DNA from: Octopus vulgaris
Taxonomy: Eukaryota
NCBI GenBank assembly: GCA_951406725.2
Contig: OX597814.1
Coordinates: 79,732,001-79,796,000, forward strand
Direction of reading: 5' to 3'
Length of the DNA: 64,000 nt
Under the pieces are notes generated by a model that ran no database searches, was not told the DNA's origin, and saw only the letters and a list, made by a program, of their open reading frames with translations. Positions 6,294-20,180 of the stretch are shown here, in pieces. A program made the translations under genes and the position numbers. Position 1 is the stretch's first letter. Every line of letters begins with the position of its first letter.

Positions 6294-6494
6294 CCTCGTG
6301 TGTACCGTTGGCGATTTTTTTCCCTCTGTCTTCCCTTCTCTGGATCTTTCCTTCTCCTATGTTTCCGACGAAGAGCTCTGCTCGAAACGTTAAACCCTCC
6401 TTCTTTCCTTCTTTCCTGAGCGTCCAATAATACTATATTTGTTCCACGTCCTCTCGTTGTTGTGTTTTTTTGTGCTTTCTTGTTTGGATTAACT
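6294..6494 (+). mobile_element. PLE terminal-repeat copy (family P1) in (TA)n with minimal hammerhead
   Basis: GTTT-CCGACGA-AGAGCTCTGCTC-GAAACGTT|AAAC at 6361-6395; 3' end GGATTAAC+(TA)n shared with copies at ~15340-15540 and 53425-53642. Confidence 0.7.
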
Positions 6495-6604
6495 TTATAT
6501 ATATATATATATATATAATTTCATTTTTGGAATAATGGATTTTGAAGCCCATAAAACATATAGATATTGTATTGAAAATCTTTTGGGGTAGGATATTAGC
6601 TGGG

Positions 6605-12399: not shown

Positions 12400-12765
12400 G
12401 TGAGTTTCAAGTGTTTCGTTTAATACCCGGCGTTGTGTAGGAGCTATCCCAGACGCAAACCTGCGGCAAATTCGGCGTATAAACGAAATACATACACTGA
12501 AAGAAAGATAGATAGATTTCTGTCCAACAGCTTAAACCTGTGTACACTAAGAACACAATGTATTAAATCCGAACGAAACAGAGTTCATTTAACGAGACAC
12601 CCCTAATTACGTCACATGACGAGGTGCTTCTGCATAAAGGAGGCATCACAACTAGTTGCATAGTTTTCTACCCTCGAGGAGTGGATGCTGGATGTGTCTA
12701 AACGATCGTTGTGACTTATAAAGGTTCCCGTGTATTCCGTCTTTCGTCTCTATGCTTTGTTTTAT
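12400..12765 (+). mobile_element. Decayed PLE 3' end with degenerate hammerhead
   Basis: CTCGAGGA-GTGGATGCTGGATGTGTCT-AAACGATCGTT at 12673-12710 (palindromic ACGATCGT stem III); ends at (TATC)n. Confidence 0.4.
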
Positions 12766-12786
12766 ATCTATCTATCTATCTATCTT

Positions 12787-12869
<83 letters not shown>

Positions 12870-12874
12870 ATCTA

Positions 12875-12956
<82 letters not shown>

Positions 12957-12978
12957 ATATATATATATATATATATAC

Positions 12979-13017
<39 letters not shown>

Positions 13018-13217
13018 GGGCCTTTGCGCTCGCGCGCCTTGGCGCGCGCTGGGGGCTCGGTCGGCCCCTTTGGGCTTGCGTTGCACTGCTTGTGCGTTGT
13101 GTGCGTGAGCGCGCTTCGTGTGTGTGGGCTTGCTTCGGATGTGCGCTTGCGTATGTTTGCATACATACCCACACACTCGCATGCATCCCTACCCACATAC
13201 ATACACGCACACCTACT

Positions 13218-13248
<31 letters not shown>

Positions 13249-15533
13249 CCGCACACACACACACATACATACATACACACACATACCCACTTCAGACATA
13301 CACACACACAGACATACACCCATACACCCACACTCACACGCATACACACACACACATACACACGCACACGTACACATACACACACACACACACCCACATA
13401 CATACATTACACTTGTATACACACACACTTACATTCATACACACACACACCTACACAGCCATACCCTCACTCAGACACACACATCTACCTACACACACAC
13501 AAACACACACTGACACACACCCATACATACATACATCTACACACTCACGCCTACACACATACATACACACATACATAAACACACACACATACACATACAC
13601 ACACATACGCACACACGCATATACTTATACACATGCACACACACACACATACATACATACACCCATATACATACACACACACATACCTACATACTCCTAT
13701 ACGCACATACATACACACAGACATACACACATACACACTCACACAAACATACACACACACATACTTACACACACACTCACCTGCACGCGCACACACATGC
13801 ATGACAAACACTCATACACTCACACTCACATACGCACACACCAACATAAACACGCACACGCACACACACACCTACACTCCCACACACATACACACGCACC
13901 TACATACACACACGCACGCATACACACGCATACACACATACATTACACACGTACACACACACCTACATACACATGCATACACACACACACACAAACATGC
14001 ACGGACACACCCAGACATACATACATACACCTATATACACACGCCTACACACCTACATACACACACATATACACACGCCCACACAGCTACATACACACAC
14101 ATACATACACACATACACGGACACACCCATACATACTTACATACATACACCTATACACACACGCCTACACACCTACACACACACATGCACACACACACAC
14201 ATGTACGCACATACACACACATATACGCACACACATATATACCCACACACATGCACACACACACACATACGCACATACATGCACGCATGCACACGCGCAC
14301 ACCTACACGCATACACACACACACACGCACGTACACATACATACATACACACACGCATACATACACCCATACACATACATGCATCCTACACACACATACA
14401 TACACACTCACACATACATACACACACACGCACTCACTCACACACCTGTATGTTCGCGCACACACATGCACATACACACACTTCCCCACACCCACACGTA
14501 CATACATACACACTCATACACACATACACACACACACACACACACGGACATACATCTATGCACACACATATATACACACATACTCACATACATTCATCGG
14601 ACACACTGCCACCCAGACATACACACAGACACACTCACACATCCACACGCACACATACGTACGCGCACACTCGCAGGCTCGCGCACACACGCGTTTGCGC
14701 CGGTTCGCGCACGCATGCGCCCGCATGCACCTCGCCCTTGGACCCGACGAGACCTCCCGCCCGTTCCTGGGATGTCGCTTGTCGTTGGGTTTTCCCACGC
14801 CCGTCTCCGCGGGACCACTCTTCCATCTTCCCCTCCGCTGGAGTCCTTTTCCTAAACCCCCCCCCCCTTTTTTTCGTTACACACACGCGCACACATATAC
14901 ACACATTGCTTAAACATATACATCACTCTTACACACATTCAATCTACTCGCCACTAATACTACCACGACACTGGACACACACACACACTACTACTCAACA
15001 CACGCTGGCACGCTACATACGCCCCCACCCCTTCCCCTCCCTCCCTTCCTCCTTCCTCCCTTTTCTCACTACTGACCTTTGTCTGCTATGCTGCTGCTAT
15101 GCTGACCACCGTCTCGCCCTACCTCACACGCCTACACACAGACGCACACACTAACACATACATATATTTTTTGTTTTTTTACCTCGCCTCACACACACAC
15201 ATACACACACGCACACGCACACACTCACACATACACACACATCTGTTGCGTTACCTACCTTGTCTCCACTCTTTTGCCTTTAAAAACCCACTTTGCTCTT
15301 GTTATCGTAAACATCCGCCTTTCACCATGTGCTACTCCTAACACCAGCCGTTTTTTTCTCTATCTCCGTTGCCCTCTCCGGGATCTTTCTTTCCTCTCTC
15401 TTCCTTCTTTATGTTTCCGACGAAGAGCTCCGCTCGAAACGTCATACCTCCCTGCTTCCATTTCCTGAGCGCCTATTAATAATAATACTGTAATTGTTCC
15501 ATTGTTGTTGTTTTTTTGTTTCCCGTTTGGATT

Positions 15534-15538
<5 letters not shown>
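13018..15538 (+). mobile_element. Long PLE-derived element (family P1) in (TA)n: A-depleted 5' segment, ~1.5 kb degenerate (CA)/(CATA) tract, 3' terminal repeat with hammerhead
   Basis: (TA)n on both flanks; 3' ~200 bp homologous to 6294-6494; CCGACGA(15417-15423)-AGAGCTCCGCTC-GAAACGTC. Confidence 0.7.
13161..14670. repeat. Cryptic (CA)n/(CATA)n low-complexity tract
   Basis: About 1.5 kb almost entirely CA/TA/CG dinucleotides. Confidence 0.95.
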
Positions 15539-15605
<67 letters not shown>

Positions 15606-16226: not shown

Positions 16227-16326
16227 NNNNNNNNNNNNNNNNNNNNNNNNNNNNNNNNNNNNNNNNNNNNNNNNNNNNNNNNNNNNNNNNNNNNNNNNNN
16301 NNNNNNNNNNNNNNNNNNNNNNNNNN
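16227..16326. other. Assembly gap (100 N)
   Basis: Run of N. Confidence 1.
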
Positions 16327-16407
16327 CATTTGTGTACTTGGGTTGATCTAATCAACAGGCCCCCTCCCCCAAAATTTCGGGCATTGTGTCTAGAGTAGAT
16401 AAGAATA

Positions 16408-16472
<65 letters not shown>

Positions 16473-16498
16473 GCTGCAGTTGCATAGATTGTGGTATC

Positions 16499-16586
<88 letters not shown>

Positions 16587-16640
16587 CGTCGGTGTATACG
16601 TCTATTATTGTATGTTAGTGCATGTACTTGTTATTATATA

Positions 16641-16792
16641 TACTCTTTTCTACTCTAGACACAAGGCCTGAAATTTTAGAGGAGGGGGCCAGTCGATTAA
16701 ATCGACCCAAATGCGTAACTGGTACTTAGTTTATCGACCCTCGAAAGGATGAAAGGCAAAGTTGACCTCGGCGGAATTTGAACTCAGAACGT
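16641..16792 (-). mobile_element. tRNA-derived SINE family A, 5' truncated
   Basis: revcomp of TTCTGAGTTCAAATTCCGCCGAGGTCAACTTTGCCTTTCATCCTTTCGAGGGTCGATAAACTAAGTACCAG. Confidence 0.85.
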
Positions 16793-18520: not shown

Positions 18521-18668
18521 TATTTCTTTACTACCCACAAGGGGTTAAACACAGAGGGGACAAACAAGGACAGACATAGGTATTAAGTCGATTACATCGA
18601 CCCCAGTGCGTAACTGGTACTTAATTTATCGACCCCGAAAGGATGAAAGGCAAAGTCGACCTCGGCGG
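18521..18668 (-). mobile_element. SINE family A, 5' truncated, with 12-bp target-site duplication
   Basis: Family A core GCCTTTCATCCTTTCGGGGTCGATAAATTAAGTACCAG (revcomp); AAGAGCTATATC at 18509-18520 and 18669-18680. Confidence 0.9.
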
Positions 18669-18683
18669 AAGAGCTATATCAAT

Positions 18684-19071
18684 TCTCTTGTACTTGTTTC
18701 AGACATTTGACTGCGGCCATGCTGGAGCACCGCCTTTAGTCGAGCAAATCGACCCCGGGACTTATTCTCTGTAAGCCCAGTACTTATTCTATCGGTCTCT
18801 TTTGCCGAACCGCTAAGTGACGGGGACGTAAACACACCAGCATCAGTTGTCAAGCAATGCTAGGGGCACAAACACAGACACACAAGCACACACACACATA
18901 CATATATACGACGGGCTTCTTTCAGTTTCCGTCTACCAAATCCACTCATAAGGCATTGTTCGGCCCGGGGCTATAGCAGAAGACACTTGCCCAAGATGCC
19001 ACGCAGTGGGACTGAACCCGGAACCATGTGGTTGGTTAGCAAGCTACTTACCACACAGCCACTCCTGCGCC
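18684..19071 (-). mobile_element. tRNA-derived SINE family B, full length
   Basis: Head GGCGCAGGAGTGGCTGTGTGG..GGGTTCAGTCCC, internal (TA)/(TG) tract, tail GGCCGCAGTCAAATGTCTGAAACAAGT. Confidence 0.92.
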
Positions 19072-19819
19072 TTGTATAATTTGAATCCTAATTGTCTCCA
19101 CTGTTTCTATACACCTCAGAATAACCGAGATACTTTATGTGGGAAGTGACCAACAAACTGCGAAAACTCCAAGATTCATAACTGGTATTCTCGTGGTTGC
19201 TTCCTGGCTGATGTAGTTTCGTCTAACCTTGAAGTGTATAGTGTTTTTAGCACACTCCATCTGTAACACTGCCGCCCCTTGCTTCTCAACGACATACATA
19301 CTTTAAAGATGTTACATAGATAAAGATTATGATAGATCTGAGTTGTGAGTTTATTAATGCAATATACACACACATACACACACACACTCCACTGTGTATG
19401 TTTATTAATATCTATTTTACTTGGTGTATGTGATTGTGTGTATATCCATTAATATATGTTAATATATGCATTATTTGTTGTATTGGTGTATGCGTATGTA
19501 TGCGCGCGCATGTAATGGTGTTTGCCTTAATGTATTTTTCTTCTTCATTAGCCACAAGTCAACCGTGAACGAGCAGATCTATTATCAAAAATATTCCAGC
19601 TGTAGCCGTTCCGTCATTCTAGTTTCTAGGAGTACATTTACGAATGTGCCCTTCCCTTTTGTAGGACAGTCAGTTAGGGTTTGAAGGATAATTGGTAAAT
19701 TTCTGCAGCAGGTCGTGCAGCCATCTAGGGGTTTTCTTGGACGTTCGATGCATTTTAGGAATCCCTGATTAGTTTATTACATTCACGTGTATATACATAT
19801 AAATATATGTATGTATATG

Positions 19820-19984: not shown

Positions 19985-20180
19985 GTTTTGCTTGCTTCAA
20001 ACATTTGACTGCGGCCACGCTGGAGCACCGCCTTGAATGACTTTAGTCGAACAAATCCACCCTAAGGCATTTCTTAAGCCTAGTACTTATTGTGTGTGCC
20101 GAAACGCTAAGTTACGGGGACGTAAACACACTAACACCGGTTGTCAAGCGGTGACGAGGGAACAAAGACAGACAGACAGA
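19985..20180 (-). mobile_element. SINE family B 3' half
   Basis: TTTGACTGCGGCCACGCTGGAGCACCGCC..GGGGACGTAAACACAC. Confidence 0.8.

Follow-up and report, generated by a model that had tools for sequence, protein, structure and literature searches.

The element at the locus

The window, the whole 64,000-nt stretch of octopus DNA that was analysed, contained a 5'-truncated copy of a young retroelement set between TA-rich microsatellites (Table 1). On comparison with 15 other loci, identity extended 212 nt rightward and 1 nt leftward of the left edge of an A-poor patch in all 15. Since identity stopped at this edge in every case, the edge is the 5' truncation junction in (TA)n. The truncation had removed the outer ~50 nt of arm 1 from the window copy.

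Table 1. Features of the element and its flanks (positions in the window)
Feature	Position	Strand	Basis
Left flank, (TATC)n/(TA)n/(TACA)n/(TA)n microsatellite; insertion target, outside the element	12763..13017	.	TRF; the match to 15 other copies ends 1 nt left of 13018
5'-truncated young Neptune-type Penelope-like element (assigned from motifs), 3' UTR only (last 2.5 of ~3.0 kb)	13018..15539	+	98-99% identity to other copies; longer copies with ORF
Arm 1 of inverted repeat (the reported patch)	13018..13161	+	Alignment to reverse complement of arm 2; predicted duplex of the window copy -167.9 kcal/mol
CA-rich low-complexity loop between arms, little predicted structure	13194..14640	+	TRF; whole-UTR fold
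Arm 2, second G-rich, A-poor island	14645..14843 (about)	+	14648-14803 predicted to pair with arm 1 of the window; 451 genome copies
Minimal hammerhead-like motif in 3' tail	15417..15443	+	Motif scan
Right flank, (TA)32 target microsatellite	15539..15602	.	TRF; 32/35 census copies with intact 3' end followed by (TA)n

The genome searched comprised 2.8 Gb in 227 contigs and was rich in microsatellites. The window copy had no ORF. Longer copies contained, upstream of the patch, a CA tract, a T run and then an ORF (949 aa in copy L045) that ended 498 nt before the patch. This ORF specified a reverse transcriptase (RT) with a YIDD motif, followed by a C-terminal GIY-YIG domain. The Pfam matches to RVT_1 and GIY-YIG were weak, below the curated cut-offs. 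Homologues of the ORF numbered 779, the best being 56% identical, and had RT and often GIY-YIG domains. In L045 a C-X4-C-xx-C linker preceded the GIY-YIG core and two Cys lay inside it; two His followed downstream of the core in the translation, as for the CCHH motif. According to the available text of PMC8557442, a CX2-5CxxC linker and CCHH define the Neptune endonuclease, the linker being found also in Nematis.

Copies L018, L020 and L021 had a second stretch of the 3' end, 0.75-2.3 kb long, upstream of the ORF, forming a pseudo-LTR (pLTR). The 5' ends were variable among copies, and the intact 3' ends were mostly followed by (TA)n. By these motifs and the (TA)n targeting, and not by RT phylogeny, the element is assigned as a Neptune-type Penelope-like element (PLE).

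The ORF of L045 had an extreme strand bias, with 44% C versus 15% G, and a long proline-rich segment before the RT. In the tail too, T-to-C changes exceeded C-to-T changes, by 19 to 9, from older to younger subfamilies. Several copies had their 5' ends inside arm 1, at offsets of -11 to +15 (the window copy at 13018, L075, L084 and L002). Three of 13 truncations, in the census and the window together, fell within a 92-nt part of arm 1 where about one was expected. This clustering is a weak hint of a reverse-transcription pause or a junction preference. The upstream pLTRs (L018, L020 and L021) often contained arm 2 without arm 1; in read-through RNA, such an upstream arm 2 could pair with arm 1 and enclose the ORF in an alternative fold.

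Beyond the element, a 100-N scaffold gap was present at 16228-16327, 700 nt downstream. Inverted copies of a short repeat flanked 16327-16721, and several SINE-like interspersed repeats, judged by eye, lay at 18540-19075 and 20000-20160.

The patch and its complement

The initial annotation had described positions 13018-13160 as an A-to-G hyper-substituted patch. A recount confirmed the 4 A and 44 T that it gave, the other letters being 38 C and 57 G; no 143-nt stretch of the whole window was poorer in A. The probability of four or fewer A was 2e-18 at the A frequency of the window, and 8e-10 if A and T were taken as equally likely. Chance is excluded as the source of the A-poverty.

The derivation proposed for the patch fared differently. 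Reverting G to A had been said to make it match the adjoining CA/TA tract. When each G of the patch was allowed to match A, the CA tract gave z=2.7 and the left TATC/TA tract z=3.2, neither above the maximum in 200 shuffles. Left unreverted, the patch reached z=8.6 when set against the reverse complement of the second island, 1.5 kb downstream. The TG runs of arm 1 are complementary to CA runs; they are not TA runs that were edited.

The first 45 nt had also been likened to the GIY-YIG C-terminus of a PLE. A profile of 107 homologue C-termini, scored with a free choice of A or G, found its best match in arm 1 elsewhere than in the claimed frame, at 12.2 bits, a score reached by 9 of 200 shuffles. 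The real GIY-YIG motif of the element scored 26.4 bits and lies ~500 nt upstream of the patch, in the longer copies. The patch is arm 1 of a degenerate inverted repeat of ~190 nt, and neither a one-off editing scar nor an artefact.

The predicted RNA rod

When the whole 3,049-nt UTR of copy L020 was folded, the two islands paired along ~190 nt and dominated the fold. The full arm 1 of this copy scored 130.5 against the reverse complement of arm 2, versus 64+-7 in 300 shuffles (maximum 101), in an alignment scoring that was blind to wobble direction. The predicted duplex of the L020 arms had an energy of -224 kcal/mol, versus -146+-7 in 100 shuffles.

In a majority-type copy, 146 pairs were predicted, namely 97 G-C, 28 A-U and 21 G-U (14%), with a longest helix of 12 bp; 146 of the 157 purines would be paired. 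These figures belong to a structure computed from the youngest subfamily. Mismatches between the aligned arms were 29 pyrimidine-pyrimidine versus 4 purine-purine. The predicted rod has pyrimidine-rich internal loops, and 1.45 kb of CA-rich single strand is looped out of it; in most older copies the loop was 1.1-1.5 kb long.

The strand bias of the element may shape the arms. The sense strand is C-rich and G-poor, and arm 1 would be G/U-rich and A-poor as the complement of a C/A-rich arm. Because the ORF strand has 44% C and 15% G, G would accumulate where there is pairing. Positions with A-U, G-U and A-C would then keep turning into G-C pairs.

Hyper-editing and assembly error as unlikely readings

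The initial annotation had read the patch as a hyper-edited retroelement RNA that was reverse-transcribed and integrated. The retroelement held up, being a PLE, and a double-stranded RNA region is indeed predicted there; a hyper-edited copy is not what the patch turned out to be. It is scarcely credible that the window copy itself came from hyper-edited RNA. Composition was the one point in its favour, and against it all of the 40 scored copies in a DNA search of the own genome (40 of 446 candidates, window included) were 100% identical over 173 nt, the window having the majority form of the family.

A 29-nt pattern that accepted A or G at every G was found at 189 places (control 0), and 100 of 100 among the matches listed were of the G-form. 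A search requiring A at three sites at which G is opposite U yielded 5 copies, each having a single A and otherwise the G-form. No cluster dominated by A-to-G was found in 78 copies, the highest proportions being 5/19 and 5/24, common to two related copies. No A-form source sequence was present among the matches listed or the subfamilies, at a search depth to ~15-20% divergence. Mismatches that would be almost exclusively A>G had been anticipated from a family alignment with A equated to G; the differences between subfamilies were mixed, with C/T leading. Family copies were as G-rich as the window copy, all subfamilies were A-poor, and no hyper-edited copy was seen. Equally G-rich copies and a mixed spectrum are outcomes that the initial annotation itself had named as refuting its reading. 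The patch lies in a predicted duplex with evolutionary support.

A single ancient hyper-editing event in a founder RNA, from which all subfamilies descend, is a very unlikely origin of the A-poor arms. In its favour, both arms were already A-poor in the oldest sampled subfamily, and in arm 1 G-U pairs outnumbered A-U pairs. Against this, the spectrum was mixed, including the 29 pyrimidine-pyrimidine mismatches, and G-U made up only 14% of the pairs. Such an excess of pyrimidine-pyrimidine mismatches cannot be made by A-to-G editing alone. The few copies found with the three-site pattern, each with a single A, also spoke against a founder event, and the reversion did not recover the claimed GIY-YIG motif.

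Polishing of the assembly with edited reads had been offered as the alternative, and we give an assembly or polishing artefact practically no credence. Homopolymer indels differed among copies, so the assembly does have errors. The patch, however, occurred in hundreds of copies on many contigs, with distinct junctions and in a coherent subfamily ladder. In addition, 14 of 14 sampled words were found in 20 of 24 listed runs (six studies), 18 of these runs belonging to five studies that are not the possible source; the types of the 24 runs (DNA or RNA) are guesses, and none of the listed runs with the words was recorded as RNA. Sequencing or base-calling error after (TA)n was considered and rejected, since the identical patch was found in other copies.

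Pairing along the subfamily ladder

Older subfamilies were retrieved with variant patterns, which gave 39, 122 and 138 overlapping matches. Sixty copies were fetched and 14 dropped (arms missing, partial or deleted); the other 46, together with 6 young copies, were grouped by eye into nine groups. Divergence from the majority of the own group in the arms ran from 3.0% in S5 down to 0.5% in S0a, the type of the window, and the 44 copies whose tails could be aligned gave a ladder-like tree. On an octopus scale in which a distance of 0.09 is about 25 million years (available text of PMC13282606), the age of S5 would be near 8 million years, a value inflated by assembly error. The S5 copies (L113-L122) had a longer, rearranged 3' tail, the last part of which resembled a sister family at window 6294-6496, and in some of them (L113, L115) internal deletions had fused ORF and UTR.

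All 52 grouped copies, in nine subfamilies, gave folds of -196 to -227 kcal/mol, with 8-12 A in their arm 1. The A-poverty is older than any subfamily found, and none of them was an ancestor old enough to show its origin.

Differences between S5 and S0a fell at 35 of 291 paired versus 28 of 93 unpaired positions (p=1.6e-4). Among 32 changed pairs, 20 were still paired through a one-sided change, 2 were compensatory and 10 were broken. Copies L089 and L115 differed by 72 substitutions. With these at their real places the fold was -223 kcal/mol, versus -160+-10 at random places; none of 150 random placements of the same base changes matched the real one, nor did any of 150 in the reverse direction. 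In the young copies, 7 of the 11 shared variants lay at unpaired sites, against an expected 25% (p=0.008). Exchanging arms between the oldest and the youngest copy cost 31 kcal/mol one way and was free the other way.

We interpret these comparisons to mean that a long-range RNA rod has probably been kept by selection on the RNA of the element, acting in cis on the transcript. Several points weigh against such selection. Only 2 pairs were fully compensatory, and many of the kept pairs were G-C/G-U swaps, which common C/T changes would produce in any case. The cost of the arm swap was one-directional, and a young family with 68% amino-acid identity had no G-rich arms in the 3 copies inspected. 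Arm-1 purines opposite U were more often G than A (12 versus 7 in the youngest, 13-18 versus 8 in the oldest). Together with a rise of A-to-G that is specific to the arms, this leaves some scope for editing.

A-to-G changes in the arms

Compatible with a selected rod is a slower process, which we hold to be possible on the unlikely side. ADAR edits at a low rate would be reverse-transcribed and found subfamilies, the arms losing adenosines site by site; the general T-to-C drift of the element would then turn G-U into G-C. In the comparisons below, the direction of A-to-G is the order of subfamily age, with groups made by eye and changes not assigned to branches of the tree.

Where both S4 groups have A, S0a had G at 5 of 38 sites in the arms versus 1 of 185 in the tail and ORF (p=0.0006). 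In the same comparison T-to-C was equal, at 8/96 in the arms versus 21/253 in the control. From the oldest group, S5, A-to-G changes were found at 8 of 46 arm sites versus 6 of 137 elsewhere (p=0.008). A side lineage of two copies differed from its sisters by A/G at 4/47 arm versus 1/106 tail sites (p=0.03). The count of A in arm 2 fell from ~34 to 25 down the ladder. Singleton A-to-G changes in 78 copies amounted to 7/2638 in the arms versus 11/12418 elsewhere, a ratio of 3 (p=0.027, one of six tests).

ADAR prefers A-C mismatches (PMC3091650, available text), and it avoids an upstream G (excerpts of PMC3091650 and PMC5625713). Hyper-editing in octopus is very high, as stated in the accessible part of PMC5625713. 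Four of the 8 A-to-G changes faced C, and the other four started from A-U pairs. Subfamily S0b has a new A-C mismatch, between arm-1 offset 79 and arm-2 offset 1691. No A-to-G change was preceded by a 5' G (0 of 7 versus 8 of 39), a difference that is not significant (p=0.33). The surviving A of the arms were rarely preceded by U or A (4/33 versus ~11 expected); this depletion was seen also, more weakly, in the tail and ORF controls. An enrichment of 5' G in the outer half of arm 2 (7/10, p=0.002) was dropped, as the split had been chosen after looking.

Other observations run against editing. At A-C positions the same changes are expected from selection for G-C pairs, four G-to-A differences ran the opposite way, and other types of change were also 1.2-2.4 times higher in the arms. 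In the young census (38 of 40 copies aligned), private A-to-G changes were 0 in 334 and 0 in 897 observations of arm A. In arm 2, the four A tested were kept in 100 of 100 among the matches listed (of 451). Contigs over 14630-15538, from 3 runs guessed to be RNA and 1 guessed to be DNA, had 18 variant places, none of them A-to-G, and the subfamily variants were visible in them; as such contigs drop rare variants, they carry no weight for or against editing.

The A-U cases lean slightly to editing, and the A-C cases are explained equally well by selection for G-C pairs. Per adenosine and copy, integrated edits would number no more than a few in a thousand. It is conceivable, with the balance tilted against it, that the element carries its own ADAR substrate and that edits were fixed subfamily by subfamily. 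Editing would then be a heritable directional mutator, and the A-poor arms would record host editing over millions of years on a retroelement lineage that is still live.

The hammerhead-like motif and related families

The motif in the 3' tail, a candidate ribozyme, differs at one core position from the hammerhead consensus. A search of Rfam gave no hammerhead match, only miRNA matches driven by microsatellites and below gathering scores. The local fold of the motif had only short stems. The outer part of arm 1 was considered as an A-to-G version of the hammerhead core, and this was rejected because the G residues in question pair with arm 2 and are conserved.

The 3' end of a sister PLE family was present at window 6294-6496, between (TA)n tracts, with 75% identity over 151 nt and the same hammerhead-like motif at window 6365. 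Its copies were ~200 nt long, and several shared a start point after TA-rich tracts. Of 40 listed copies 20 were retrieved, and in none of these was there an ORF within 5 kb. Contig depth over its motif was hundreds of times that of the main family. The sister family is possibly a very abundant, short, non-autonomous element.

A second young Neptune-type family (L028-L044) had 68% amino-acid identity to the main family and copies ~97-98% alike. In its 1-kb 3' UTR there were a CA-rich tract and a C/T tract, and its hammerhead-like tail was more divergent. No G-rich arms or rod were seen in the 3 of 17 copies that were inspected. On the evidence of these copies, the rod is no general need of Neptune elements.

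A possible role for the rod

The chances are about equal for and against the rod being a cis-acting element that helps retrotransposition or protects the RNA. By pairing, the rod would bring the stretch immediately after the stop codon close to the 3' tail and compact the UTR. The newly made RT-endonuclease, released at the stop codon, might then meet the 3' tail and hold its own template. Alternatively, the rod might shield the RNA. The internal pyrimidine loops and few adenosines would limit its recognition as perfect double-stranded RNA.

The RNA signals of PLEs are barely known beyond hammerheads, and the 190-bp rod is a concrete candidate cis-element. Our searches on PLEs and on heritable ADAR marks brought to light no published description of such a rod; most subscription journals and repeat databases lay outside them.

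Comparison with known systems

The element has much in common with Neptune-clade elements as given by Craig et al. 2021 (PMC8557442): a single ORF with RT followed by a C-terminal GIY-YIG domain and the CX2-5CxxC linker, pLTRs in partial tandem, 5' truncation and (TA)n targets. What sets it apart from the Neptune elements described there is a 3-kb 3' UTR of low complexity that contains a long-range inverted repeat. In the text available, inverted structures are reported as a truncated copy in inverted orientation next to the upstream pLTR; diverged arms within the UTR are not among them (PMC8557442). As in the known pLTR elements with minimal hammerheads, a hammerhead-like motif lies near the 3' end and is repeated in the pLTR. 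On the other hand, here a core position is off the consensus, the rod is outside the motif, and the element is autonomous.

In A-to-G hypermutated retroviral DNA, preferred ADAR targets are lost from the genome over time. A similar loss over time is described for mollusc herpesvirus genomes in the accessible part of PMC6651903. Unlike in the herpesvirus and retroviral cases, no clustered hypermutated copy was seen here, and any effect would be slow and confined to the duplex.

Inverted Alu pairs in 3' UTRs (excerpts of PMC3091650 and PMC4982230) likewise fold into a long duplex within one molecule, imperfect and a likely substrate of ADAR. The role of ADAR in how Alu subfamilies evolved is called undetermined in the available text of PMC4982230. 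The present ladder, in which particular sites are seen in an older and a younger state beside an internal control region, makes ADAR-driven subfamily evolution testable. Unlike in inverted Alu pairs, both arms here lie in one mobile element and travel via RNA, and edits could be inherited.
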